A DNA stretch of 64,000 nt from an uncultured Candidatus Saccharibacteria bacterium (GTDB lineage Bacteria; Patescibacteriota; Minisyncoccia; UBA6257; 2-01-FULL-56-20): assembly GCA_964505005.1 (NCBI GenBank), contig CAZDFQ010000004.1, positions 5,172 through 69,171 of the forward strand, written 5' to 3'. Below, in pieces: positions 4,636-58,255 of the stretch. Positions within the stretch are counted from its first letter, which is position 1; each line of letters begins with the position of its first letter. The notes under the pieces were generated by a model, which saw nothing but the letters and a program-made list of their open reading frames with translations, ran no database searches and was not told where the DNA came from. The translations under genes were made by a program, and so were the position numbers.

Positions 4636-6930
4636 ATGGGGCCCGCTGACATCAAAAAAATAATTACGGGATTTTTGGTGCTTTCGATTGTAACCGGCGT
4701 TTTAACGCTGGCGGTTTTCAACTTCACCGGTTCCCAGCCGGCAGCTTCTCCTAATTTGATAAGTGCGGTTGGCGAAAATTCCCTTTCCGTAGCCAGCAGC
4801 GCGCTTGTCGAGTCGTTGCCGGAAACTAATGTTCAAGCAGGGATGCAAACAAAGAATCCTGCTGCGGTTTCAACAGCTGGTTTGGCAGCGGACAATTCCA
4901 ATCTGACCCAGAATTTCGCCAGGGTTTTCACCCAAGAAGTGCTCGACAATAATCCTGGCGGCCCGCAAACCGACCTCAATGGCCAGCAAACTCTAAATCT
5001 GCCAACCGAAAACTATGCGCAGGAACTAATCCAAAAAGCCCTGGCCACCACGACCATTGAAATTGACGAAGAAATTCCGGCTTCGGCGATAAAGATAAAA
5101 AGTTTTTACGCGCCAGATGACCTCGCCAATTATTTTGAATCCGTTAATAAAATTCTTGCCGATGTCAGTTCAAGTACCGCTTCGCTCAATATCGCCAATC
5201 AGAGTTCCACGCCCGAAATCCTAACGCTCAGCCAGCTGATTTTTGAAAGCGCTTTTCAGAAGCTGAAAGATATTTCCGTACCTCAGCCATTGGCCGAGAT
5301 GCACAAAACGATTCTGAAATTCTTCGGCAATCAGAACAAGGTTCTTGAAATTGCGTCCGGTTATCAAAGCGACCCGTTAAAAGCGGTTCTGGTTTTGCAA
5401 TCAAACAGCCAGCTCGTCGAACGAGACCTGGGGAATTTTCAAAATGAATTTCAAAAAATCAAGCCGGTTTTAGCTTCGGAAAATTACTTAAAAAATAGCC
5501 GCGATGATTTATCGATTCTGCAGAAACTTTTAGGAGTTGAAGTTGCCTATGCTATTCCAGTTACCGAAGTAGGAGCGGCGCTGGCAGCGGCCATTGCGCA
5601 GGTTGCCGACTGGGTTACCTCTCTCGCCAAGGACGCGGCCCAATGGGCCTATGATACGGCGCTCCGCATCGCGGTCAAGCTGCTTATCGACACCTTTCAA
5701 AACCAGGTGGTCAACTGGATTGCCGGCAACGGCGATCCCAAATTCATCACCAACTGGAGCGGGTTTTTGAGCGATGTGGCTAATAAGGCCATTGGCCAAA
5801 GCATTTATCAGGTTGCGCCGTTTCTCTGTTCGGGCATCGGCCCGCTTTTGAGGATAGCGGTCACTCCGGTGCCGGCCATTGATACCTCGGTGCGCTGCAC
5901 ATTGAATCAGGTGGTGAAAAATGTCACTGATTTTTACAACAGCTTCCAGAACGGCGGCTGGGTGGCTTATGGCGCCACGCTCCAACCAGGAAATAATTTT
6001 TTCGGCAACTTAATCCAGCTTAATGACGTCATTACCAGAAAAGCTGCCGAGGCGGTTGGCACGGCCCAGAGCAAAGCCATAGCTGGCCAAGGCTTTAAGG
6101 GCATTACCAAATGCGTCAAATCGCACGAGGAAAGAGGCCAGCCCATTGCCTGGGATGAAACCGGAAGGCCCACTGATTACGGACCGTCGGTAACTGTCTG
6201 CGACCAAGAAATTGAGACCACGCCGGGCGGCGCCGTGGCCAACGCGCTTTTTGGTTCTATGAACTGGCAAGTGGGTGAAATCGTCAACGCTCGAAGATTT
6301 GAAGAATTAGCGGGTGCCATTATCCAGGCCGGCATCAACCGGATGATAAAGGAAGGGCTTAATGCTTTGACCGAAGCGAGGAACCCAAAGCCGGTAAGTT
6401 TCGCTGGGGCCATCCCAGCTGGCGTTCCCAACCCGGGCGATATTTCTTCGGTTAAAGCCAGCATGCAGAGTTTGGTCAGCTCGTATCAGGAAAACGGCAC
6501 TTTCCAAAAATTCCAAGATGTGGCTGACGCGGATAGTCAGTGGTTGGCTTTAATGCCGCAGGTCGTCAATACCCTGAATCAGGTGGCTTCCAGCTGCTCA
6601 TCTTTAGCTTCCAGCGCCAAGCAAAAAATCAGCGACCTTAACTCGCTGAACAGCAATGTGACAACCGAATTCCAAAGCGCCTCGGCCAACACTTACAGTT
6701 CGCTCAAACTGCAGATTGACAATGCCACCAGCACGGAGGCGCTTAACAATATGCTCAACCGGCTCCAGGGCTTGGCTTCGGTAGGCGTGGACGTCCAGGC
6801 GGCCCAGGCCCGGCTGACCAAGCTGAAAAATCTTTCCGCCAATGCCCGGGCCAACCTGCCGGACAACTGCAACGTCCCGCTAATTGATAGCTCGATATAT
6901 TATCAGCCAACCGGCTACGAAAGCCGTTAA
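4636..6930 (+). CDS. Large secreted/membrane-anchored protein of the T4SS-like locus, unknown function
   Basis: N-terminal TM anchor, Q/N/S/A-rich. Shares a Cys-loop motif 'KCVKSHEERGQP...VTVCDQEIETT' with the next gene ('KCVKSRQEYKPG...VTICEQEENEN'). Confidence 0.55.
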   Translation: MGPADIKKIITGFLVLSIVTGVLTLAVFNFTGSQPAASPNLISAVGENSLSVASSALVESLPETNVQAGMQTKNPAAVSTAGLAADNSNLTQNFARVFTQEVLDNNPGGPQTDLNGQQTLNLPTENYAQELIQKALATTTIEIDEEIPASAIKIKSFYAPDDLANYFESVNKILADVSSSTASLNIANQSSTPEILTLSQLIFESAFQKLKDISVPQPLAEMHKTILKFFGNQNKVLEIASGYQSDPLKAVLVLQSNSQLVERDLGNFQNEFQKIKPVLASENYLKNSRDDLSILQKLLGVEVAYAIPVTEVGAALAAAIAQVADWVTSLAKDAAQWAYDTALRIAVKLLIDTFQNQVVNWIAGNGDPKFITNWSGFLSDVANKAIGQSIYQVAPFLCSGIGPLLRIAVTPVPAIDTSVRCTLNQVVKNVTDFYNSFQNGGWVAYGATLQPGNNFFGNLIQLNDVITRKAAEAVGTAQSKAIAGQGFKGITKCVKSHEERGQPIAWDETGRPTDYGPSVTVCDQEIETTPGGAVANALFGSMNWQVGEIVNARRFEELAGAIIQAGINRMIKEGLNALTEARNPKPVSFAGAIPAGVPNPGDISSVKASMQSLVSSYQENGTFQKFQDVADADSQWLALMPQVVNTLNQVASSCSSLASSAKQKISDLNSLNSNVTTEFQSASANTYSSLKLQIDNATSTEALNNMLNRLQGLASVGVDVQAAQARLTKLKNLSANARANLPDNCNVPLIDSSIYYQPTGYESR

Positions 6931-6975
6931 GTCAAATAGCAAAAAGCAAATAGCAAATAACAGAAATAAAGACAA

Positions 6976-9117
6976 ATGAAAAGTCCTCGAGCGACGAAGA
7001 AATTAAATCTATTTAAGACCGGCGGCTTGATTACTGTTTTGATAATTCTGCTTTTGCTGACGCCCAGGGTTCTTGCCGTAACAGGAGTAGAGGACTACAC
7101 TGCCCCTTCGTTGGGAGGCCTGCTTGGTTTCATCGGGGATGTTACTGGCACTGTTGTCGGCTGGGTGGTTTATGTCTTCAACTATATAGTCGCCACGATT
7201 TTCGGCGTTTTCATCGCCATTATCACCTATTTTATAGAAGTAGTTCTTCAATATAATTACAACATTGTAAATTCCCGCCTTGTCACCATCGGCTTTGGAA
7301 TAACTTTAGCCATTGCCAATCTCGGCTTTGTTTTGGCCATCATCATCATCGCCATTGCCACCATTCTTCGCCGTCAAACCTACGGCATTAAAGAAGTGCT
7401 CTGGAAGCTGGTGGCCGCGGCCGTGTTGGTGAATTTCAGTTTGGCGATTGCCGGCACAATTTTGACTTTCTCCAATACTCTGACTTCCTACTTCCTGAAT
7501 AGTTTTAATCCGGCTGGCACTGGAAGTTCTTTCGGGGCTTTTGCCAATGCCATTGCCGGCGCTTTTGCCCCGCAAAAAGTATTCCTGGCCATGGACCAAG
7601 GCGCCACTGTTAAAAAATGCGTCAAATCACGCCAAGAATATAAACCTGGCATGAGTCAGCCGGTAACCATCTGTGAGCAGGAGGAAAACGAAAACGCCGG
7701 TAATCTTATTGACCCCAATAAAATAAAGAACGCGGCTGGCGCCACCAAAACTTTCGGGGGCATTCTAGTCCCCCTGCTTAATCTTTTTTTCCCAACAATT
7801 TTTCTCATTATCGCGGTCATCGCGATGGCCGCTCTCTGGATTATGCTGCTGATTCGCTATGTATTTTTAGGCATACTTTTGATTTTAATGCCTTTGGCCT
7901 GGTTGTTGTGGATTTTCCCCTTAACCAAGGGTCAGTGGCAGAAATGGTGGGATGAGTTCATTAGGTGGACTTTTTTTGCTCCGGTGGTCGTGTTCTTTAT
8001 CTATCTCGCGATTTTGACAGCCGGCGGAATGGCTGGCCAAGGAGTGGTTATTGACGAACAAGGAGCAGCTGCTCAAATCTCTAAAGTAATTGGCACCACC
8101 AGAGGGCTTTCGCCGTCAATAGAAACAATGCTCCAGATGGCAATGCTGACCGCAATGTTGGTGGCCGGCCTGATTATAGCTAACAAAATGGGCATTATGT
8201 TCGCTGGCGCAGCCGTAGGCGCGGCCACCGCGGTCGGCATGGGGTTCGGCGCATGGGTTGGCCGACGGGGCAAACAGCTCGGCGGCGCAACCCTTGATAC
8301 ATTGAGGGCGCGCAAGGCGGCTGAAAGACTTCAGCGGGTAGGAGCTGGAAGAGGCGCTGTTGGGAAGCTACTTACTTTGCCGGTGCGCTATGCCGGCCGG
8401 GGTATAGAAGCTATCGCGGTAGCCACCAGAGAAAGCCTTGTAAAAGACGCGATGAAGCGCTTGGCGGGTAAAACCACTGGCGAGCTCTCTCACAATATGT
8501 CCACATTTACAGCTCCCGAAAGAATGGCGGCTCTCGAGATGCTCCGACAGAGCGGTGATGTATTCGACGCCAGCAAAACGGGCGGAGTTAAAGAGGTATT
8601 CTCTCGGTATGTAGACCAAAATCTTTATAAGCGGTACGGCCAGCAGAACTACTATGACAACCTCACGAAAGGTAAGGGCGCTATGGCAAATCCTGAGGCA
8701 ATCCAAGCCGCTATTATTGGAGACCTGAAAAAACTTGACGACGCATTAAAGGGAATCATTCCCTCTATAACAAAAAGTCATATTGGCGACAACAAAAACC
8801 TTAATGATATTTTCGCCGGTAAAACCGACGAGGAAAAACTTTTGAATAAGTACCAGATTCGCAACCTCCTTACCAGCAATTTTGCTTTGATATCCTCGAT
8901 AATCCCGAAGCTAAACTCGAGCAGTAGAAACAATTTCCAAAAACTAACTTATGAAGCATTGGAAGAGCTTCTAAACGAAAAGAGAATAGAGGGAAAAGAT
9001 TACGACGACCTTAAAAAGGAGTTTGGAGGAATAATGCTGAATAATACCAGGGGCTTAATTGTCGAAGCCGGCGTTCCGCCAACTGCTCCAACGGCGACAC
9101 CAACCGCCGGAACATAA
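6976..9117 (+). CDS. Polytopic membrane protein, VirB6/TrbL-like (T4SS-like inner-membrane component)
   Basis: Signal peptide followed by at least 8 hydrophobic helices and a large soluble C-terminal domain. Sits in a same-strand cluster with VirB3/VirB4/VirB2-like genes. Confidence 0.5.
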   Translation: MKSPRATKKLNLFKTGGLITVLIILLLLTPRVLAVTGVEDYTAPSLGGLLGFIGDVTGTVVGWVVYVFNYIVATIFGVFIAIITYFIEVVLQYNYNIVNSRLVTIGFGITLAIANLGFVLAIIIIAIATILRRQTYGIKEVLWKLVAAAVLVNFSLAIAGTILTFSNTLTSYFLNSFNPAGTGSSFGAFANAIAGAFAPQKVFLAMDQGATVKKCVKSRQEYKPGMSQPVTICEQEENENAGNLIDPNKIKNAAGATKTFGGILVPLLNLFFPTIFLIIAVIAMAALWIMLLIRYVFLGILLILMPLAWLLWIFPLTKGQWQKWWDEFIRWTFFAPVVVFFIYLAILTAGGMAGQGVVIDEQGAAAQISKVIGTTRGLSPSIETMLQMAMLTAMLVAGLIIANKMGIMFAGAAVGAATAVGMGFGAWVGRRGKQLGGATLDTLRARKAAERLQRVGAGRGAVGKLLTLPVRYAGRGIEAIAVATRESLVKDAMKRLAGKTTGELSHNMSTFTAPERMAALEMLRQSGDVFDASKTGGVKEVFSRYVDQNLYKRYGQQNYYDNLTKGKGAMANPEAIQAAIIGDLKKLDDALKGIIPSITKSHIGDNKNLNDIFAGKTDEEKLLNKYQIRNLLTSNFALISSIIPKLNSSSRNNFQKLTYEALEELLNEKRIEGKDYDDLKKEFGGIMLNNTRGLIVEAGVPPTAPTATPTAGT

Positions 9118-49293: not shown

Positions 49294-49370
49294 GTCCCCG
49301 TGGTGTAACTGGATAAGACGTCGGCCTCCGAAGCCGAAGATTGGCCGTTCAAGTCGGCCCGGGGACACCA
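49294..49370 (+). tRNA. tRNA-Arg (anticodon CCG), CCA encoded
   Basis: Acceptor 'GTCCCCG/CGGGGAC', anticodon arm 'TCGGC-CTCCGAA-GCCGA' (U33, CCG, A37), T-arm 'GGCCG-TTCAAGT-CGGCC', A20 and discriminator A, 3' 'ACCA'. Confidence 0.8.
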
Positions 49371-49974: not shown

Positions 49975-50616
49975 TTATTTCTCTCCTACAAACACCCAGT
50001 GTGCAGAGAGGTAGGGAGTTCCCACATCAATCAGGCCGCCGTGCTTCAAGTGGTAAACCTCAATAGCCTTGAAGCATTGCATGAGTGAGCGGGTCTCCTC
50101 TTCGTCCACGAAGTGATGGGGTACGCCAGCTTCAATCCCCTCGTTGGGGACGAAGGTGTGTGGTTCTATCTCTTCGCCTCTCCGGTATTCAGAGCTTTCA
50201 CGGGAGATGAATGTGCACATGACAATTCCTCCCGGGGACAACGTGCGGCGCATCTCCGCGATGCAAGCACAGATGCCGCTCACAGTGTTGTGAGTAATGA
50301 CTCCTCGACAGATGCACGCATCGAAGAAGTCATCCGGATAAGGAATCACTGTCATGTCGCTCATTACGAGTTCGGCTTGAAGACCCTCTTGTTCAAGCCA
50401 ATTTCTCGTAACTTGTTCGCCTCTCTTGGAGATGTCGGTCCCGTACATCATAAATCCCAGTTTTGCGAGGTAGACGATGTGACGTCCAGCCCCGAATCCG
50501 AGATCGAGCACCCGCTTGGCTCCGCGAAATCGGAGAATTGACACGACTTTCACGACTTCTTCTGCGGGATCTTTCAGGCAGAATTTCGCGTCTTTGTAAA
50601 GATCGTCCCAGTTCAT
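49975..50616 (-). CDS. Class I SAM-dependent methyltransferase (first gene, by coordinate, of the GC-rich island)
   Basis: 'VLDLGFGAGRHIVYLAKLG' SAM-binding motif I. Start chosen at 50616 with SD 'gggagg'; the longer ORF would overlap the upstream aaRS gene. Confidence 0.65.
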   Translation of the reverse strand: MNWDDLYKDAKFCLKDPAEEVVKVVSILRFRGAKRVLDLGFGAGRHIVYLAKLGFMMYGTDISKRGEQVTRNWLEQEGLQAELVMSDMTVIPYPDDFFDACICRGVITHNTVSGICACIAEMRRTLSPGGIVMCTFISRESSEYRRGEEIEPHTFVPNEGIEAGVPHHFVDEEETRSLMQCFKAIEVYHLKHGGLIDVGTPYLSAHWVFVGEK

Positions 50617-50698
50617 GTTAGCCGACCTCCCATGAGATGGAGCGGATGACCGGGAAGCACTCCGCCTCCCGGTCATCCTATTATTCCTTACTCGCAAG

Positions 50699-52006
50699 TC
50701 ACGGCGTGAGCCGATTGACTCCTCGATAGAGGTATGTCACCTCGCGCACGGATTTGGCACCCAGCATCACCATGAGCATGCGGGTGAGGCCGAAGCCGTA
50801 GCCGCCGTGAGGCGGGCAGCCGAAACGGAAGCAGTCCAGATAGTACTGGATAGGCTCAAGCGAGAGCCCTTTCTCCCTGGCCTGCGCCACAAGAACGTCG
50901 TAGCGATGTTCACGCTGCGCCCCCGTCGTCACCTCAAGTCCTTTCCAGAGAAGGTCGAAGCTTTTGGTGAGGTGGGGCTTGCCTTCCGGACGCATGTGGT
51001 AGAACGGCCGCACCACCAATGGGTACTCGGTGACGAAGACGAACTCGTGTCCGGTCTTCTCTTGGAAGTGCCGGCACAGAAGCCGCTCGCCTTCGGGGTC
51101 GAGGTCGCCCTTTTCGCCCCGCTCGACGCGATGTTCCATCTGCTCGAGGATTTCGTACGCCTCGGCCATGGTTACCCGCGGGAACGGAAGCTCGGGGACT
51201 ACGATCTCTGTGCCGAACGTTGCCTTGATCTCCCCGCCGTACTCGGCTTTCACCGCTTGAAGTACGTGGCGGAGCCAGCGTTCCTCAAGTTGCATGACGT
51301 CCTCGTGGGAATCAATCCATGAGATTTCAACGTCAACACTGGTGAATTCCGTGTCGTGGCGGGAAGTGAAGGACGGATTGGCCCGGAAGACCGGCCCGAT
51401 CTCGAAGACGCGATCGAAGCCCGCCGCCATCGCCATTTGCTTGTAGAATTGCGGCGATTGGGCAAGGTACGCCTTGCGGTCGAAGTACTTCACTTCGAAA
51501 AGCTCCGCACCCGATTCGCTCGCGCTGCCCATGAACTTCGGAGAATGGATCTCAATAAATTCCTCCGCTGTCCAGAACGAACGCATGGCGTGTTCAGCCG
51601 CCGTCTGGATTTTGAAGATGAGCAGGTTCTGCGGGTTGCGCAGATCCAGAAATCTCCAGTCCAGACGTGTTTCGAGACCGGTGTTTTCGTCGAGAGGCAG
51701 AGGTGTGTCCGCCTTGCTCACGACCGCAACCGACTCAGCGACGATCTCTAGTCCGCCCAGCTTCACCACCGGATTGAGGATAACTCTGCCGGTGATTTCC
51801 ACTGCGCTTTCCGGCGTGAGGCCGGCGATGGCTGCGGTGAGTTCAGCGTTGATCGACTTCTCGTGCACTACCTGCGCGCTGCCGGTGTGGTCACGGACGA
51901 TGAGAAACTGCATCTTCTTTTGGTCGCGCAGCCTCTCAACCCATCCGCAGATCCGAACGGCCTCGCCGTTCTTGGTTCCGAGTTGCTTGATCAGTATTCG
52001 TTGCAT
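50699..52006 (-). CDS. aspS: Aspartyl-tRNA synthetase, archaeal/eukaryotic-type (class IIb, ~435 aa)
   Basis: Co-linear with archaeal AspRS: 'DTPLPLDENTGLETRLDWRFLDLR', 'QSPQFYKQ', 'GPVFRA', 'GGYGFGLTRML', ending '...NRLTP'. The conserved 'FPRD' is replaced by 'YRGV'. Confidence 0.7.
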   Translation of the reverse strand: MQRILIKQLGTKNGEAVRICGWVERLRDQKKMQFLIVRDHTGSAQVVHEKSINAELTAAIAGLTPESAVEITGRVILNPVVKLGGLEIVAESVAVVSKADTPLPLDENTGLETRLDWRFLDLRNPQNLLIFKIQTAAEHAMRSFWTAEEFIEIHSPKFMGSASESGAELFEVKYFDRKAYLAQSPQFYKQMAMAAGFDRVFEIGPVFRANPSFTSRHDTEFTSVDVEISWIDSHEDVMQLEERWLRHVLQAVKAEYGGEIKATFGTEIVVPELPFPRVTMAEAYEILEQMEHRVERGEKGDLDPEGERLLCRHFQEKTGHEFVFVTEYPLVVRPFYHMRPEGKPHLTKSFDLLWKGLEVTTGAQREHRYDVLVAQAREKGLSLEPIQYYLDCFRFGCPPHGGYGFGLTRMLMVMLGAKSVREVTYLYRGVNRLTP

Positions 52007-52064
52007 GACTGTTTTCTCCTTTCAGTGTGCCTTGCCGATATTGGCTTAGCGTATGTGGTGGTGT

Positions 52065-53387
52065 TCATGGATTAATCCTCCTCCCGAACGCTCGGTGGAA
52101 AGGGATCGTGTCCCGCACATGCGGAATCTGCAGGAGCCAACGGATGAACCGTTCCAGCCCCAGACCGAAACCTCCGTGCGGCACACAGCCGTACTGACGA
52201 AGCTCCCGCAACCATTCGTAGCGGGCGTCGCCGGCTTTGCCTTTTTCTGCCAGACGCTCATCGAGCATCGGTAGTGTACTGATTTTCTCGGCAATACCGA
52301 GAAGCTCGCCATAACCCCGGCTTGCGATTAAATCCGCCGTCTTGGTGCGACGTGTATCCGACGGATCAATTACATACGGGAAGGGCTCGATGGAACGCGG
52401 GATGCCGACAACCCAGAATGGGATGTCGCCGAATCGCTGGCTTAGCCTAGCTTCTTCATCAGAACCCAAGCTTTTGCCGAATTCGATGTCAAAGCCCTGC
52501 GCTTTGAGCCACTCCACGGCCTCCGTGTAGTCAATACGCGGAAACGGCGTTTTCAGACCGTCGCCGCACATTTCAGTGCCGATGACGTCAGCGAGCTCGC
52601 GTCCTTCACGGATGCTTTGCTCGTTCACGTCCCGAATGAACCGCTCGACCACGGAGACCATGTCTTCCAGATCCACAAAAGCCAGCTCAGCCTTGATATG
52701 CCAGTACTCCATGAGATGTCTCTTGGAGCGGCTTTCCTCGGCACGAAAACTGGGGCCGATGTTGTAGATCTTTTCGAAAGCGTGCACCGCGGCTTCGAGG
52801 TAGAACCCGACGCACTGCGTGAGATACACGTTTTGGCCGTGAACCTTGAGCGCAATCGGTGTTCGGTCGTCGTAGAGCGGTGTCGGCGTGAGCACGGGAG
52901 CGTGAACCTCGGTGAATCCATTTTCGTGGAACCACTGATGTACGGCTCGTGTGAGGATGTGGCGAAACCTCAGGATGGCGGCAATTTTCTCGTTGCGGAG
53001 ATAAAAGTACCGCTTGTCCAGAAGTTGCTCTTGCATCCTCGGATCCTGAATATCAATGTTCGCCCGCGGGTACGGGGAGACATTGATCTCGCTCGTGCCG
53101 ACGATTTCGATTTCCCGCACACGAAGCTCTCTTGGCGGATTAGGCCGTCCGGTTTCTGCAATGATTCCGGTAGCCTTGACCGCCGTTTCTTGGCTCATGC
53201 GACGTGCGAGTTCGAAAGCGGCTTTGTTGCCATCTTCGATCACGCACTGCACCGTGCCGGTGGAATCAGCGATGTCCAGAAAGACAACGCGGCTGTGGCC
53301 GCGGCGGGTTTTCACCCATCCGTAGAATTCGACCCTGCTACTGTTTGGAATGTGTTTGAGCAAGTCAACTGCATATACCCTTTTCAT
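52065..53387 (-). CDS. asnS: Asparaginyl-tRNA synthetase (class IIb)
   Basis: 'IGPSFRAEESRSKRHLMEYWHIKAELAF' motif 2 and 'RYEWLRELRQYGCVPHGGFGLGLERFIRWLLQIPHVRDTIPFHR' are co-linear with the E. coli AsnS C-terminus. The 'FPR' motif is altered to 'FHR'. Confidence 0.75.
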   Translation of the reverse strand: MKRVYAVDLLKHIPNSSRVEFYGWVKTRRGHSRVVFLDIADSTGTVQCVIEDGNKAAFELARRMSQETAVKATGIIAETGRPNPPRELRVREIEIVGTSEINVSPYPRANIDIQDPRMQEQLLDKRYFYLRNEKIAAILRFRHILTRAVHQWFHENGFTEVHAPVLTPTPLYDDRTPIALKVHGQNVYLTQCVGFYLEAAVHAFEKIYNIGPSFRAEESRSKRHLMEYWHIKAELAFVDLEDMVSVVERFIRDVNEQSIREGRELADVIGTEMCGDGLKTPFPRIDYTEAVEWLKAQGFDIEFGKSLGSDEEARLSQRFGDIPFWVVGIPRSIEPFPYVIDPSDTRRTKTADLIASRGYGELLGIAEKISTLPMLDERLAEKGKAGDARYEWLRELRQYGCVPHGGFGLGLERFIRWLLQIPHVRDTIPFHRAFGRRINP

Positions 53388-53854
53388 TTTTTCTTTCCTC
53401 CTTGTCGTATCCTTTGGAACGCGGCAGAGAATGTTGCGGGTGAGTTCGGTATAACGCCAGTGTAATATTTGTATACGCTATTCCAGTAACGATCTTGTAA
53501 CGCATCGTTTAAATACACACTGTTTTCTCTATTTAGTTGTTAAAGAACTCTCAATAACCTCCCGGAGTAATTCCAGAGAGGAATATAAATTTTGACATTT
53601 ATGGATAGTTTTGTAAAGAAGTAATATAAGGGTAATCTAAGCCAATTGGTACAGCTCTACTATCATGGAAAGTATGTACCAATTCAACCAAATACCATCA
53701 GAAGCAAAGGTCGAGAAATACTTCCGGCGGATTCTGTTCGGGAAGAATATGTTTTGTCCTCTGTTTTAATTCGGAAAATATCACGATAGAATTGACTCTG
53801 TCTGTAATTAGTTTTCATTTCGGCCGAGAAAATATCTCGAAAAGAAAAAGGATT

Positions 53855-53905
53855 TAAATAACAAAACAAAAAGGCGGAGAGGCCTTCTTGGTGTATCTCT
53901 CCGCC
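53855..53905 (-). terminator. Rho-independent terminator of the RiPP-like operon
   Basis: 'ggcggagag-gccttcttggtgtat-ctctccgcc', followed on the minus strand by 'tttttgttttgtt'. Confidence 0.6.
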
Positions 53906-53925
53906 CTTTGCTGGCTGAGGGTATC

Positions 53926-54972
53926 TTACCGTCTTCTGATGCTTAGTTGCCTCATTATTCTCGCTTCGCGACAGGTTCGGGTTGCAGGCGTCCGCATATC
54001 TCCAGCCTCAATATGATTGAGACCTAGACATGGTCGGCAGTATTTCAGCAGCTCGCAACTGCCGCACTTCAGGCCTTGGAGCGTTACCGAGCGCATATCA
54101 AGGAGTTGTGGCGAGTTCTCCCAGATATCCGCAAAAGGACGTTCTGTTACATTCCCGCATCGAAGGGGCATTTGGACGCAGGGGTACACGTCCCCGTACG
54201 GGGAAATGTAGCAGGACATGTGCCCGGCGCCGCAGGGGATAGTGTTGAATGAACCGGTGTATGCTTCCTCGCGTTCCATTTCCGTGCCTGTTTCCTCTTT
54301 ATTGAAATTGAAGAGAGGATCAGAGAGGAGGTGGGGGAGGTACTCGTCATCCACACAGAACTGAAGCGGCCGGTCGCTGCCGTCGCTTTTGGGTGCGAGG
54401 CGATAGTCCGTCTGGAATCGCGCTCCAATTTCTTTCGCGAAGGCGTGGATCTCGCGCCAATCCTCTTTGTTTTGTTCCATGATGACGGAGGATATTTTCA
54501 CTCGCGCTTTGCGCTCTCGGAGCATTTTCGCCGCCCGGATGGATTTCTGGAGCGAACCCAGGCCCCGGGTGATTGCATCGTGAAGTTTGGGATCCAAGCT
54601 GTAGATGCTAATGGCAACAAGCTCCGGATACAAGGCGGCGATGCGGTCTGCGCTTCCTTCGGTGAGCAGCGTGCCGTTGGTCAGGAGTCGGAGAGCGAAG
54701 TTCAGTTCGCGCGCGTACTCCGCTATCTCGAACAAGTCTTTGCGCGCCATAATCTCGCCCCCGCTAAGGGTGAGATAAAGCGTTCCGACTGCGGCTAACT
54801 GCTCTAGTGTTCGCTTTGCTTGAGTAGTAGCGAGCTCCGGTCGGGCCTGCGCCGTAATGTAGCAGTGAACGCAGTCCAAATTGCAACGGTAGGTGAGGTC
54901 GAAGTGGGCTACCAGAGGAATTTTGCTCCTCAGCGCTTTCTCGCGCAGGGTCTCGAAAAGGTTAAGGTTCAT
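53926..54972 (-). CDS. Radical SAM/SPASM-domain peptide-modifying enzyme (PqqE/MftC-like maturase)
   Basis: 'FDLTYRCNLDCVHCY' CX3CX2C cluster and a C-terminal SPASM 'CGAGHMSCYISPYGDVYPC...CGSCELLKYCRPCLG'. Start is an ATGA overlap with the upstream PqqD-like gene. Confidence 0.8.
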   Translation of the reverse strand: MNLNLFETLREKALRSKIPLVAHFDLTYRCNLDCVHCYITAQARPELATTQAKRTLEQLAAVGTLYLTLSGGEIMARKDLFEIAEYARELNFALRLLTNGTLLTEGSADRIAALYPELVAISIYSLDPKLHDAITRGLGSLQKSIRAAKMLRERKARVKISSVIMEQNKEDWREIHAFAKEIGARFQTDYRLAPKSDGSDRPLQFCVDDEYLPHLLSDPLFNFNKEETGTEMEREEAYTGSFNTIPCGAGHMSCYISPYGDVYPCVQMPLRCGNVTERPFADIWENSPQLLDMRSVTLQGLKCGSCELLKYCRPCLGLNHIEAGDMRTPATRTCREARIMRQLSIRRR

Positions 54973-55277
54973 TCCGGAGCTCCTTTCATGAGCAGCAGAT
55001 TCTTCTCTGTCATCTGGTTGATGAACTCGACGCAATCCCTTTCCAGTTCCTCTCGGCCGACATCAAATTCGGCCAGCAGCGCGTCAGTGATTTCCCGCAT
55101 GCTTTTCGTGCCATCAATCATCTCCCAGATGCGGGTGGCAACCGGGTTCAGGAGATGGAAAGCGGCCTCCCGCAAATCCACCGCCACTGCTTGACCGGCG
55201 ATTACCCGCCAAGCGATAATTTCTCTATTCTTCGTCGGAATGCCATCCGAGACGTCTACTGCTCGTTCGTCCCTCAT
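54969..55277 (-). CDS. PqqD-family RiPP recognition element (RRE) protein
   Basis: 'AFHLLNPVATRIWEMIDGTKSMREITDALLAEFDVGREELERDCVEFINQMTEKNLL' matches the PqqD family. SD 'ggagacagcataATG'. Confidence 0.75.
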   Translation of the reverse strand: MRDERAVDVSDGIPTKNREIIAWRVIAGQAVAVDLREAAFHLLNPVATRIWEMIDGTKSMREITDALLAEFDVGREELERDCVEFINQMTEKNLLLMKGAPE

Positions 55278-55362
55278 TATGCTGTCTCCTCTGCTGGTTG
55301 TTTTAGGTTTTTTCAGGTTTCTATGTCTAATCTATCAAAATTAAACCTCGACATCAATTTAT

Positions 55363-56217
55363 TTATTTCTTCCCACTTACGGCGTAGGAAGTATAAATGT
55401 CTCCGAAGCGCGGGAGGAAGTTCTTCCGACTTAATTCCGGGCTACTGAAAAATGTTTGATAATTGATATTGCGGAATTTAAGCCGCCTAAGATAGCCGAC
55501 TATTATATTACTAGCAGCAAATTCAATCTTATATTTCTGGGCTAATTTTAGGCTAGTGGAATTTTTTTCATAGACCAGGCCGCTCAAAACCAATCGGCCG
55601 CTTCTTTTTAAAACTCTTTGAGATTCTTTAACCCCCGCGTGGATATTCGGTTCGTCAAGGCCATGCCAAGAACTTACGCTGTCAATTGATTGGTCGGCAA
55701 ACGGCATGCATCTAGCATCAGCGCAGATAATGCTGACTTTAGAATATTTACCGAGCCGCTGTAATAAGATTTTAAGCCCGACGGCGCTGGCATAATCAAT
55801 TTCCAAAGCAATGACTTTACCACGACTTTTGTCGAGTATGTTTCTCAAAAATCTGCCGGTTCCGCTGGCCCAATCCAGATGAATCCCGCTTTCTGAAAGA
55901 ATAAGCTGGCGGGTCATCCACTTTATTTCCTTCTTTAGATAAGCAAGCTCTCGCGGGTTGAAGTTTTTAAGCCATTTGTTTTTTAATTCCTGTTTTGTGA
56001 TAAAGTTTAAAATTTTGCGGAGGCGCGCCTTATTCTTGTCTTTACAACTGAGGGAACGAAAGCAAGCAATGTCATCGATAACCGCGAATTTAGCGGCACA
56101 ACCTTGGCAAATCAGGATGCCTTGTTTAATTCTTGTCTCCGAAGATTCGTCTTCTTCCAAATGCAACGGCGATTTACACTTAGGACATGTGAGAATGGAA
56201 AGCAGGTCGCGGTTCAT
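55363..56217 (-). CDS. Methyltransferase with N-terminal Trm112-like zinc ribbon fused to a class I SAM MTase domain
   Basis: 'LSILTCPKCKSPLHL...LICQGCAAKFAV' zinc ribbon, then 'LDWASGTGRF' SAM motif I. Confidence 0.7.
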   Translation of the reverse strand: MNRDLLSILTCPKCKSPLHLEEDESSETRIKQGILICQGCAAKFAVIDDIACFRSLSCKDKNKARLRKILNFITKQELKNKWLKNFNPRELAYLKKEIKWMTRQLILSESGIHLDWASGTGRFLRNILDKSRGKVIALEIDYASAVGLKILLQRLGKYSKVSIICADARCMPFADQSIDSVSSWHGLDEPNIHAGVKESQRVLKRSGRLVLSGLVYEKNSTSLKLAQKYKIEFAASNIIVGYLRRLKFRNINYQTFFSSPELSRKNFLPRFGDIYTSYAVSGKK

Positions 56218-56243
56218 AATCGAAAAATTTATAGGTATGATTG

Positions 56244-56289
56244 TTATGCCGTACTAAAATAGAGAGAACGCCCAGAGCACCGACGACTC
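56244..56289 (-). terminator. Intra-operon attenuator/leaky-terminator hairpin between the candidate precursor and the modification genes
   Basis: Minus-strand 'agaacgctcagagtcgtcggtgctctgggcgttct' followed by 'ctctatttt'. Confidence 0.4.
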
Positions 56290-56312
56290 TGAGCGTTCTT
56301 TGCGCGACAACC

Positions 56313-56459
56313 CTATCCCTTCTTCGGAGAGAAGGGCTGGCCGCAGAACTTGACACTGGTCGTGGGACAGTCCCCCATCCGTTCCTGAGGCTCTGCCCCC
56401 GAGACCGTCCGTGGCGGCTCGTACTGCTTCTTGGTTGCCGCGGCTTCGCCTTTCTTCAT
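56313..56459 (-). CDS. Candidate RiPP precursor peptide (48 aa)
   Basis: Manual translation gives 'MKKGEAAATKKQYEPPRTVSGAEPQERMGDCPTTSVKFCGQPFSPKKG'. Consensus SD 'GGAGGTG' lies 6 nt upstream of the ATG. It is the first gene of the operon, followed by the attenuator hairpin; under 60 aa so absent from the ORF track. Confidence 0.45.
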   Translation of the reverse strand: MKKGEAAATKKQYEPPRTVSGAEPQERMGDCPTTSVKFCGQPFSPKKG

Positions 56460-56527
56460 GGCCTTCACCTCCTTCCTGCCAAGTTTCTATTTTTAGGATA
56501 TTATTATAATTCAAAATGTCAATTATG

Positions 56528-56551
56528 TTGCCAAGGGGATTCGCCTGGCAA
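56528..56551. promoter_or_regulatory. Operator-like palindrome 'TTGCCA-N12-TGGCAA' next to a TTGACA -35 element upstream of the precursor gene
   Basis: 'ttgccaaggggattcgcctggcaa'. A TTGACA hexamer (minus strand) sits at 56517-56522. Confidence 0.4.
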
Positions 56552-56593
56552 TCTGGCTTTTAAATTTGAAAATACCGCATTAGAATTGTTTCT

Positions 56594-56875
56594 ATGCCCG
56601 GTAGTACAACTTCGAACAGATATTATGTCGTCTATACGCTGGAAAGCAGAAAAGACGGGAAAAGATACATCGGCTTGACCACTAATCTCCAAAAGAGAAT
56701 CAAGGAACATAATATGGGAAAATCCTTTTCAACCAGCCCTCGCCGGCCATTCAAGCTCATTTACGCCGAACTCTGCCTTAATTCCGAAGACGCCAAAAAA
56801 AGAGAGCGTTATCTGAAAACCACCGGAGGTCGCCGGTTTTTAGCTAAACGGCTTCGAGCTTATTATTCCCAATAA
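56594..56875 (+). CDS. GIY-YIG nuclease family protein (YhbQ/UPF0213-like, 93 aa)
   Basis: 'YYVVYTLESRKDGKRYIGLTTNLQKRIKEHN' is the GIY-YIG motif. Confidence 0.7.
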   Translation: MPGSTTSNRYYVVYTLESRKDGKRYIGLTTNLQKRIKEHNMGKSFSTSPRRPFKLIYAELCLNSEDAKKRERYLKTTGGRRFLAKRLRAYYSQ

Positions 56876-56932: not shown

Positions 56933-58255
56933 ATGCGGTTCATTGCCGATTTACAAATTCATTCCAAATACAGCCGGGCCACCTCCAAAGAAATGGTTTT
57001 GGAAGAAATCGACCGCTGGGCCGGCAACAAAGAGATTTTGGTGATGGGCACCGGCGATTTTACCCATCCGGCCTGGTTTGAAGAAATCAAACAAAAGCTT
57101 GAGCCAGCTGAACCCGGCCTTTTCAAATTAAAAAAAGAATTCAAGTGGCCGACATTGCGCGGCGACTTGTCGGAAACACGTTTCCTTTTGGAAGTGGAAA
57201 TCTCCGGAATTTATTCGCGCCCCTCGGCGCGGCTCGGGGCAAACAAGACCTATCGGATTCACAATCTGATTTTTGCGCCGGACTTAGAAACCGCGGAAAA
57301 AATCAACACTCAGCTCGGCTGGATAGGGAATTTGAAATCTGACGGTCGGCCGATTCTGGGGTTGGACTCCGAAGAACTAGCCAAAATCGTTTTTAATACC
57401 AATCCTCAGGCGGTGATTGTCCCGGCCCACGCCTTCACCCCATGGTTCAGCTTGTTTGGTTCGATGTCTGGTTTTGATTCAATTACAGAATGTTTTGGCG
57501 AATATACAAAATATATCTTTGCTATTGAGACCGGGCTGTCCGCGGATCCTTCGATGTGCTGGCGAATGTCTCAACTTGATAATATTTCCTTAATATCCAA
57601 TTCCGATTCGCACTCGCTTCAGCGCATTGGCCGCGAAGCCAATATCTTTGACACTGAGCTTTCCTATGAGGGGATAATTGACGCAATCAGGTCTCGCGAC
57701 CCTAAAAAATTTTTAGCCACCATTGAATTTTTTCCCGAAGAAGGCAAATACCATTTGGATGGCCACCGACTCTGCGGCGTGGTCTTCGAGCCGGGCGAGA
57801 CGAAAAAACATAACGGCATCTGTCCCAAGTGTGGCCGGAAGCTGACCATCGGAGTTCTGAACCGAGTGGAAGAATTGGCTGACCGGCCGCCAGTCAAAGT
57901 AGAGATAAGCGGCTATCTTCATAAATACGAAAACCGTGTGCCATTTTATAATCTGGTGGCTCTTGACGAGGTGATTGCCCAAGCTTACGGACTCGGCGTG
58001 GCTTCGCGAAAAGTCAAGTCCGAGTACGAAAACCTGATTAAAAAATTCGGCGGCGAATTCAAAGTTCTAATGGAAACAAATGTTGAGGAATTGCGGGCTG
58101 GCGGCGCGCCGGAAGAAATCATCAAGAGTATTGTCGCGGTGCGCGAGGGCGAGGTGAAATTCGAGCCGCCGGGCTTTGACGGCGAATACGGCAAAATTTC
58201 CATTTTCAGCGAAAACGAAAGAAAAGAAATCGAGCCGCAGAAATCGTTGTTTTAA
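56933..58255 (+). CDS. Endonuclease Q (PHP-domain deaminated-base endonuclease, TIGR00375 family)
   Basis: N-terminus 'IADLQIHSKYSRATSKEM...VMGTGDFTHPAWFEE', 'PAHAFTPWFSLFGS', and 'KYHLDGHRLCG...ICPKCGRKLTIGVLNRVEELAD' are co-linear with archaeal EndoQ, including its zinc finger. Confidence 0.8.
   Translation: MRFIADLQIHSKYSRATSKEMVLEEIDRWAGNKEILVMGTGDFTHPAWFEEIKQKLEPAEPGLFKLKKEFKWPTLRGDLSETRFLLEVEISGIYSRPSARLGANKTYRIHNLIFAPDLETAEKINTQLGWIGNLKSDGRPILGLDSEELAKIVFNTNPQAVIVPAHAFTPWFSLFGSMSGFDSITECFGEYTKYIFAIETGLSADPSMCWRMSQLDNISLISNSDSHSLQRIGREANIFDTELSYEGIIDAIRSRDPKKFLATIEFFPEEGKYHLDGHRLCGVVFEPGETKKHNGICPKCGRKLTIGVLNRVEELADRPPVKVEISGYLHKYENRVPFYNLVALDEVIAQAYGLGVASRKVKSEYENLIKKFGGEFKVLMETNVEELRAGGAPEEIIKSIVAVREGEVKFEPPGFDGEYGKISIFSENERKEIEPQKSLF

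Follow-up and report, generated by a model that had tools for sequence, protein, structure and literature searches.

The question raised by this locus is whether a short open reading frame (ORF) of 48 codons and the three enzyme genes beside it form a pathway for a modified peptide, and whether such a pathway belongs to any named system. The locus lies on contig CAZDFQ010000004.1 of an uncultured Candidatus Saccharibacteria bacterium; the window analyzed is a stretch of 64,000 nucleotides (nt) of this contig, and all window positions refer to it. A preliminary description, made from the letters of the sequence, had placed here four minus-strand genes of a cluster for a ribosomally synthesized and post-translationally modified peptide (RiPP), and sequence inspection together with Pfam searches confirmed the genes, their places and their domains. 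The four-gene cassette occupies 53926-56459 of the minus strand and is read in the order precursor peptide (56313-56459, 48 amino acids (aa)), methyltransferase (MTase; 55363-56217, 284 aa), stand-alone PqqD-family RiPP recognition element (RRE; 54969-55277, 102 aa) and radical S-adenosylmethionine (rSAM)/SPASM peptide maturase (53926-54972, 348 aa). We conclude that this is probably a conserved, unnamed RiPP-type maturation cassette, in which crosslinking by an RRE-guided rSAM/SPASM enzyme would be followed by methylation. The profile matches, and the gene sets that recur in other genomes, support the first description of an RRE-dependent rSAM/SPASM pathway for peptide maturation that has a real precursor.

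The 48-aa ORF is a genuine gene, far beyond chance, because 65 homologues emerged from a profile search of 5.8 billion proteins and the codons of the peptide core have an entropy of 1.39 bits at the third position. Since the first and second positions have 0.38 and 0.44 bits, and synonymous codon differences between the peptide genes (6863) outnumber non-synonymous ones (3518), selection on the peptide is visible at the codon level. None of the 65 homologues (0/65) has a functional name. The window peptide had no match even at an E value of 10 among NCBIfam and Pfam models, and eight related peptides had none at the same threshold in NCBIfam. Using tblastn with the 48 residues on loci fetched through the rSAM enzyme, we found the peptide in eight independent genomes, where all eight genes have an AGGAGG-type Shine-Dalgarno (SD) sequence (GGAGGTG, GGAGGTA or GGAGATG); in the loci inspected, GGAGGTG or one of the close variants GGAGGTA and GGAGATG lies 5′ of the peptide gene in 9 of 9. 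In the window the consensus GGAGGTG lies 6 nt ahead of the ATG (56466-56472, minus strand), as had been read at the outset. Homologues of the ORF beside rSAM and MTase homologues, which the preliminary description had proposed to look for, were thus found.

Alignment of the 65 homologues gave the tail consensus NCP[TS]T[SN]x[KR][Y/H/W/F]CGx[P/A/S][F/Y][S/T]PKKG. In family numbering C30, P31, T33, C38, P44, K45, K46 and G47 are invariant in 65/65, as is leader P15, and leader Y12 is present in 64/65. The leader is rich in lysine, with a Y-x-K-P pattern and the stretch x-[IV]-[RK]-S-E-K-E past P15. Mean pairwise identity is 77% in the core versus 50% in the leader, and the near-invariant core spans records labeled Patescibacteria, Thermodesulfobacteriota and Methanomethylicaceae. 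The window peptide, with leader Y13-E-P-P16 and core D-C31-PTTSVKF-C39-GQPFSPKKG, retains every family-invariant residue. Its leader, YEPPRTVSGAEPQERMGD, is by eye the most divergent of the family (K15P, and TVSGAE in place of IRSEKE), Asp replaces Asn before the first Cys (N30D), and its score of 80 bits ranks 47th of 65, the best member having 97 bits. The peptide gene is on record only from Logan assemblies and not in the NCBI record.

To compare gene neighborhoods, loci from genomes, assemblies and metagenomes (numbered with the prefix L) were pooled and dereplicated by peptide sequence, which gave 40 distinct groups; 30 of these had at least 1.3 kb of upstream and 31 at least 1 kb of downstream sequence. 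A PqqD-rSAM/SPASM gene lies directly 5′ of the peptide gene in 27/30 groups, ending 9-161 nt ahead of it. The three groups without an upstream rSAM gene are the window and two leader-truncated remnants (L092 and L093/L094), and these remnants have no rSAM gene at all. Directly 3′ of the peptide gene, and starting ∼90-140 nt past its stop codon, 27 of the 31 groups have a homologue of the MTase with its Trm112-type domain (36-49% identity in the metagenome loci). This gives PqqD(-)rSAM, peptide, MTase as the canonical order, of which the window shows a cyclic permutation. One metagenome contig, L075, shares the permuted order of the window but has a fused PqqD-rSAM gene and a canonical peptide. 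Most homologues are single proteins of ∼455 aa in which PqqD and the rSAM enzyme are joined, whereas in the window the two are separate. Such sets of peptide, rSAM/PqqD and MTase genes, for which a search had been proposed, were found in many genomes. Flanking genes differ between loci, most of them having housekeeping functions. When a fourth conserved gene was sought in these flanks, the small ORFs were unrelated and no protease, transporter or small gene recurred; no protease or exporter belongs to the cassette.

A few loci depart from this pattern in other ways. The leader-truncated remnants (L092, 3881-3937; L093, 2068-2139; L094, 3449-3520) have the sequence KKGQGDE[IL]SFNCPT[TI]SRKYCGIPYSPKKGS, and L093 and L094 retain the MTase gene 3′ of the remnant. 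The peptide gene of L005 (5345-5491) appears disrupted, with a leader identical to that of L077 and a tail replaced after ...KERPE; since its MTase gene (6466-7314) is ∼1 kb farther off than usual, the spacing suggests an insertion. L003, from a record labeled Thermodesulfobacteriota, encodes at 7245-7445 a further Cys-rich peptide of different sequence (…GCWDCGPDGAHC), and past it another rSAM gene (7765-8346). In L044 (2117-8698 of a 463-kb contig) a homologue of the MTase with 46% identity has as neighbors metK, two anSME-like rSAM/SPASM genes, another MTase gene and a gene for an acetyltransferase; in L032 the cassette lies close to a gene for an archaeal-type SAM synthetase.

The domains of the maturase and the recognition protein were identified by the profiles proposed for them. 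The rSAM enzyme matches PF04055 (78.7 bits) and PF13186 (43.3 bits) and carries CNLDCVHC, in which the CX3CX2C motif is formed by C30, C34 and C37. Eight Cys residues of the SPASM region (C247, C265, C272, C303, C306, C312, C315 and C334) are conserved among 27 relatives and, as expected for a complete SPASM domain, would fit two auxiliary clusters. An AlphaFold2 (AF2) model of the enzyme has a predicted local distance difference test (pLDDT) score of 90.8, and the nearest solved folds are those of the RiPP maturases SkfB, SuiB and PqqE, with SkfB matching at E 2e-17 by phmmer and E 8.5e-16 by Foldseek. Neither the enzyme nor five members of its clade reach any NCBIfam cut-off. The scores of the window enzyme against the respective cut-offs are, in bits, AhbD 162/500, MftC 154/265, StsB 121/625, GeoRSP 99/400, ScmE 98/400, PqqE 96/381, AlbA 89/850, ScmF 72/400 and SkfB 68/300; clade members score 118-153 bits with the MftC model (TIGR03962, cut-off 265). 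The PqqD protein matches PF05402 at E 3e-17 (63 bits, cut-off 23.4). In NCBIfam it comes closest to the lasso PqqD chaperone (38 bits, cut-off 80), followed by PqqD of pyrroloquinoline quinone (PQQ) synthesis (36/46), GeoRSP PqqD (33/100) and ScmD (27/100). A GAGGAG sequence lies 8 nt ahead of its ATG, and its stop codon overlaps the start codon of the rSAM gene as ATGA at 54969-54972, the coupling noted earlier. A prokaryotic viperin, and with it a role in defense, was considered and rejected. The PADLOC pVip matches cover only the rSAM core (residues 24-171) and the NCBIfam viperin model scores 72/180 bits; the SPASM domain, the RRE and the precursor argue against this identification. A PADLOC scan of the cassette gave generic viperin-core and MTase matches only.

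The MTase has the N-terminal zinc ribbon attributed to it. Trm112p (PF03966) matches residues 3-48 with 30.9 bits (cut-off 22), the four Zn-ribbon Cys residues (CPKC...CQGC) are in the sequence, and a class I SAM-dependent domain follows (Methyltransf_25/11, residues 114-211; Methyltransf_25 41.9 bits versus 27). NF038101 scores 42 bits, under its cut-off of 77, and residues 1-54 match PDB 6zxw_H, an uncharacterized 60-residue protein. The AF2 model has a pLDDT of 94.5; fold neighbors are generic class I natural-product, small-molecule and rRNA MTases with template modeling (TM) scores of ∼0.5. The subfamily has ∼70 homologues with 37-54% identity. In an exhaustive profile search its members scored 349-427 bits and the next proteins ≤200 bits, the latter grading into a larger group of proteins of ∼290 aa whose alignments span the whole profile, Trm112 part included. 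A UbiE/MenG quinone methyltransferase was rejected (TIGR01934, PRK00216; 45.8 bits versus 158, other models lower). Loci that lack the MTase gene share the same core, so that the core does not point to a methyl acceptor.

How the enzyme might find its site on the peptide is suggested by a wider comparison. The wider rSAM clade, 35-50% identical, is found in records labeled Omnitrophota, Methanobacteriaceae, TA06, Syntrophaceae and others, and has a small ORF directly 3′ of the enzyme gene. These ORFs have the leader pattern Y-x-K-P-x-h...E..hh and unrelated cores, each with two or three Cys residues, and beyond Cys the cores of the clade have no feature in common. The first Cys lies 18 residues past the leader Tyr in 63/65 peptides of the family and in 15/18 of the wider clade, and the window peptide keeps Y13, P16 and this spacing. 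Because the 18-residue spacing persists across unrelated cores, it points to a molecular ruler, with an RRE-anchored modification at the Cys-bearing core.

We propose the following course of events. The 48-aa peptide would be translated from its strong SD sequence, and the PqqD protein, as RRE, would bind the Y-x-x-P element of the leader. Lasso-peptide leaders carry a Y-x-x-P element, and it is by analogy with these that the binding is proposed. The fixed register would then bring C31, 18 residues past the Tyr, to the active site of the rSAM/SPASM enzyme, where a 5′-deoxyadenosyl radical and two auxiliary Fe-S clusters would crosslink the core. The product of this step might be one or two Cys thioethers of the sactionine or ranthionine type at C31 and C39. 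Since Cys is the sole shared core feature, the SPASM domain is complete and SkfB is the nearest structure, thioether crosslinks from C31 and C39 seem the most likely of the possible chemistries, although we hold this tentatively. The Trm112-fused MTase would add one or more methyl groups, after or before crosslinking, and removal of the leader and export, if they occur, would fall to unlinked functions.

Several expression signals surround the genes. On the minus strand, a strong rho-independent terminator, GGCGGAGAG...CTCTCCGCC followed by TTTTTGTTTTGTTATTT, lies at 53858-53908, 3′ of the rSAM gene, and closes the cluster as had been stated; it folds with -22.4 kcal/mol (z score -3.2) and 0 of 200 shuffled sequences fold as well. 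Between the peptide and MTase genes the same strand has a hairpin of 14 pairs followed by an interrupted T-run, CTCTATTTTA (56255-56299); the folded part (56265-56299) has -22.9 kcal/mol and a z score of -3.9. A hairpin and T-run between peptide stop and MTase start were present in 10/10 MTase-carrying cassette loci folded, and also in L075. This hairpin is GC-rich, and its structure is conserved while its sequence is not. In relatives with the canonical order it is predicted to end the rSAM-peptide transcript. Their MTase genes have, by eye, TTGnnA-N17-TAtAAt-like hexamers a few nt before the ATG and no SD. The MTase gene of the window likewise has no SD, and has TATAAA 10 nt before its ATG. 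PqqD-rSAM genes also have promoter-like sites of their own by eye, L075 included; that of the window is a weaker TTGATG-N17-TAGATT. The U-tract after the window hairpin is interrupted, weaker than those of the relatives, and the MTase promoter is poor, so that read-through past the hairpin is plausible in the window. The genes had been taken for a tight transcription unit with an attenuator. The hairpin is indeed present, but a single transcript, given the promoter-like hexamers before the MTase and rSAM genes of the relatives, is not established: one transcript for the window genes is possible, and three units would be equally compatible with their sequence.

The promoter-like region 5′ of the peptide gene (56495-56551, minus strand) contains TTGACA at 56517-56522 and the inverted repeat TTGCCA-N12-TGGCAA at 56528-56551. 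A consensus scan gave TTGACA-16-TATCCT and TTGCCA-18-CATAAT as candidates for the peptide promoter, each matching 10/12 positions; promoter-like sites are only ∼2-fold more frequent than the shuffle mean, and the spacer is shared with a divergent GIY-YIG gene. Both upstream signals of the preliminary description are therefore there, but the palindrome was rejected as an operator: at least two such 6-bp inverted repeats occur in 16% of shuffles of the spacer, which is within chance.

A number of observations weigh against the maturation pathway proposed above. Its chemistry is inferred, as are binding of the leader by the RRE, the role of methylation and the fate of the product; what is observed are the genes and their domains, the conserved precursor, the linkage, the 18-residue spacing and the permuted order. 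The fold search places SuiB and PqqE, both of which form C-C bonds, about as close to the rSAM enzyme as the thioether-forming SkfB, and the best NCBIfam scores are those of AhbD and MftC, not of sactisynthases. The MTase fold gives no clue to a substrate; four loci (L003, L040, L088 and L089) have rSAM and peptide genes with no MTase gene, and the MTase homologue of L044 sits in a different rSAM cluster without an NCPTT peptide. The core is unusually invariant, the peptide gene is single-copy and no protease or exporter is linked to it, all of which is atypical of secreted antimicrobial RiPPs. Finally, since the leader of the window peptide is the most divergent of the family (K15P, TVSGAE, with N30D before the core), activity of the window copy is not assured.

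Three rival explanations were considered. The product might serve as a cofactor derived from the peptide, or be a small modified protein that stays inside the cell, the rSAM enzyme placing a C-C or C-O crosslink or an oxidation on the tail and the MTase finishing it. Such a product would be consistent with a core that hardly changes between Patescibacteria, Thermodesulfobacteriota and Methanomethylicaceae records, with one family peptide per locus and no conserved protease or transporter, with MftC as second-best NCBIfam match, aligned near end-to-end at 154 bits, and with PqqE and SuiB as close structural neighbors; the mycofactocin pathway also has a methyltransferase, although the match to the MftM model is very weak (15.6 bits). 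However, the peptide has neither E-x3-Y nor a C-terminal GVY, the MftC and PqqE cut-offs are missed widely, genes of the pqqB/C or mftD/E/F type are in no locus, no partner dehydrogenase was identified, and Cys as the sole core feature shared by the wider clade favors sulfur chemistry. We regard this explanation as unlikely. A related but bolder proposal is that the cassette makes no secreted antibiotic and instead yields a fixed-structure modified peptide, centered on Patescibacteria and horizontally shared, that serves as a cofactor or as an intracellular or cell-surface effector in an episymbiotic lifestyle. We give this only a small chance; if it were true, the pattern of crosslinks and methylation would define a new RiPP class.

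It is also conceivable that the MTase stands outside the peptide pathway, as an independently transcribed neighbor acting on RNA or a small molecule. The classical partners of Trm112 are methyltransferases of RNA and of translation factors, and the top fold matches include the rRNA MTase RlmA(I). The hairpin and T-run separate the two genes in every locus examined, the MTase genes of relatives have promoter-like hexamers of their own near the ATG and no SD, and each gene occurs without the other (four rSAM-peptide loci without the MTase gene, and L044). Against such independence, the MTase gene is directly 3′ of the peptide gene in 27/31 distinct loci that differ in their other flanks, the adjacency is kept through the permutation in the window and L075, and the subfamily is about the size of the peptide family and is set off from other Trm112-MTase fusions by the gap from 349 to 200 bits. 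A separate MTase is therefore rather improbable. That the window copy is a decaying remnant, from which no product is made in this genome, is very unlikely. Its low-ranking peptide score and divergent leader, the atypical gene order and the existence of leader-truncated remnants elsewhere (L092-L094) would fit decay, but all four ORFs are intact, every family-invariant residue of the peptide, rSAM enzyme and MTase is present, the SD and terminators are kept, Y13, P16 and the 18-residue spacing are preserved, and L075 has the same order with a canonical peptide.

We also compared base composition and distribution. The window has a GC content of 47.8%, compared with 62% for the peptide gene (78% at third codon positions, GC3), 54% for the PqqD gene, 55% for the rSAM gene and 42.6% for the MTase gene. 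The gradient peptide > rSAM > MTase was found in 11 of 13 loci compared (L001, which is the contig of the window, L003, L004, L006-L008, L010, L034, L038, L040-L042 and L047), and in 10/10 of those with an MTase gene, against a local background of 30-42%. Across the family the GC content of the peptide gene far exceeds that of its genome (GC3 up to 0.78), that of the MTase gene equals the background, and that of the rSAM gene falls between. Since the gradient recurs whatever the background, the GC mosaic characterizes the family and is no sign of an island at this locus. The GC-rich, horizontally acquired island of the preliminary description therefore does not hold, the MTase gene inside the cluster having 42.6% GC, and island composition was rejected as a sign of recent transfer. 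Codon bias, mRNA structure and staggered acquisition are candidates for the cause of the gradient. Transfer of the cassette as such is likely, because peptides and enzymes with >50% identity occur in records labeled Patescibacteria, Paceibacterota, Parcubacteria, Thermodesulfobacteriota and Methanomethylicaceae. In viral contigs we found only one relative, with 23% identity, and the cassette is not phage-borne. Named records of the family are mostly Patescibacteria, Paceibacterota, Parcubacteria or Saccharibacteria. With 40 distinct peptide variants fetched and most named records from Patescibacteria, the statement that RiPP clusters are very rare in these bacteria does not hold for this family. 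The reads behind the window came from a copper-mine tailings dam in Brazil.

On the plus strand, divergent from the promoter region of the peptide gene, is a gene for a stand-alone GIY-YIG nuclease of 93 aa (56594-56875). A nuclease gene adjoining the rearranged cassette could relate to its permuted order. The next gene (56933-58255, plus strand) encodes a 440-aa protein without a Pfam match in a direct scan; a precomputed table gives PF27218 MJ0043_C. On the other side, ∼540 nt of AT-rich sequence (53388-53925; 37-40% GC) with no convincing ORF lie between the rSAM terminator and an asparaginyl-tRNA synthetase-like gene. A remnant peptide or MTase gene was sought in this stretch, 3′ of the window rSAM gene, and none was found; a decayed copy in ancestral position was accordingly rejected. 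Farther on are two adjacent paralogous genes for class IIb aminoacyl-tRNA synthetases of the Asp/Asn type (50699-52006 and 52065-53387, minus strand), one of which is named asparaginyl-tRNA synthetase by JGI (its 90% cluster), and adjoining the pair is a class I methyltransferase gene (49975-50697, minus strand). With 52-59% GC, 49975-53387 of the minus strand is the richest coding stretch near the cluster. The sole Rfam match in the 64-kb window is a tRNA gene at 49294-49367 (plus strand).

Patescibacteria have a minimal metabolism and almost no characterized specialized products, and the cassette is a compact set of three or four genes with a previously unannotated precursor. The peptide signature and the leader ruler can be used for genome mining, and the set is a small target for heterologous expression. 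That the core hardly varies between bacterial and archaeal records hints at a conserved and specific target or role, which makes the peptide of more interest than a typical variable bacteriocin. The system would gain sharply in interest should its product turn out to be a cofactor or effector of Patescibacteria with a fixed structure.

Among known systems, the sactipeptide and ranthipeptide pathways (SkfB/SkfA, AlbA/SboA, StsB, CteB/CteA and PapB) have the same rSAM-SPASM enzyme with an RRE and a short precursor with a Cys-bearing core. SkfB is the closest solved structure to the window enzyme by sequence and by fold, and the StsB and AlbA models match it in part; all three sactipeptide maturase models (StsB, AlbA and SkfB) stay under their cut-offs. 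The precursor is unrelated to theirs and its core is nearly invariant, whereas theirs is variable; the thioether proposed here is by inference. The cassette is also without a protease or ATP-binding cassette (ABC) exporter, and has a dedicated Trm112-fused MTase. Mycofactocin (MftA/MftB/MftC, MftM) shares a short conserved precursor, a stand-alone PqqD-family chaperone, an rSAM/SPASM enzyme and a pathway methyltransferase, and the MftC model, second-best in NCBIfam, aligns with residues 18-324 of the window enzyme. However, MftC reaches 154 of 265 bits and MftM 15.6 of 200, the tail ends in SPKKG without a C-terminal GVY, and no mftD/E/F-type genes were found in the window or in the loci of relatives. 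The PQQ pathway (PqqA/PqqD/PqqE) likewise uses a PqqD-fold chaperone and an rSAM/SPASM enzyme on a small peptide, and PqqE is close structurally; in contrast, PqqE (96/381 bits) and PqqD miss their cut-offs, the peptide has no E-x3-Y motif, and pqqB and pqqC are absent. The earlier view that the cluster is neither PQQ nor mycofactocin is upheld by these scores and by the missing E-x3-Y and GVY signatures.

The SynChlorMet (SCM) and GeoRSP systems of Haft are likewise PqqD plus rSAM/SPASM cassettes defined by bioinformatics; the window proteins and five clade members are far under the cut-offs for ScmD/E/F and for the GeoRSP rSAM and PqqD proteins. In L036 (5454-8194) the gene of a clade member (P0058, rSAM 52% identical) is accompanied by two PqqD genes, an ABC transporter gene, a faintly ScmC-like gene and a gene for a 49-aa peptide (…EELFEATVLACTKIPNSLCRVAVSG), and this larger cluster links the clade to SCM-like cassettes. 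As to lasso peptides, the PqqD protein of the window best matches the lasso chaperone, and the Y-x-x-P of the leader, with Tyr in 64/65 and Pro in 65/65 homologues, resembles the corresponding element of lasso leaders; the system differs in the score (38/80 bits), in having no lasso cyclase or protease and in its rSAM modifying enzyme. In the candidate phyla radiation (CPR), many graspetide loci also encode a SPASM maturase or UbiE-like methyltransferase, and in most such CPR ATP-grasp ‘branch 2’ loci the precursor was unidentifiable (Makarova et al. 2022, PMC8939145). An MvdD-type ATP-grasp gene is found in L041 as well, ∼1.3 kb 5′ of the cassette. The window and most loci, on the other hand, have no ATP-grasp gene, and the precursor of the cassette is identified here. 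Judged by the description in that paper, the cassette may supply the precursor for the SPASM and UbiE-like genes of these CPR loci.

In a full-text literature search (core motif, CPR with RiPP/rSAM/SPASM, Trm112 with RiPP) no description of the system was found, the remark in PMC8939145 being the only related one. No NCBIfam cut-off for PQQ, mycofactocin, SCM, GeoRSP or sactipeptides is reached, which agrees with the uncharacterized RiPP class suggested at first. Neither Pfam nor NCBIfam release 20 has an entry for the precursor family, the Trm112-fused MTase subfamily or the three-gene architecture. Judged from its sequence, the system is of a well-known kind, an RRE-dependent rSAM/SPASM RiPP pathway, to which the window adds a member with a permuted gene order and a split RRE.

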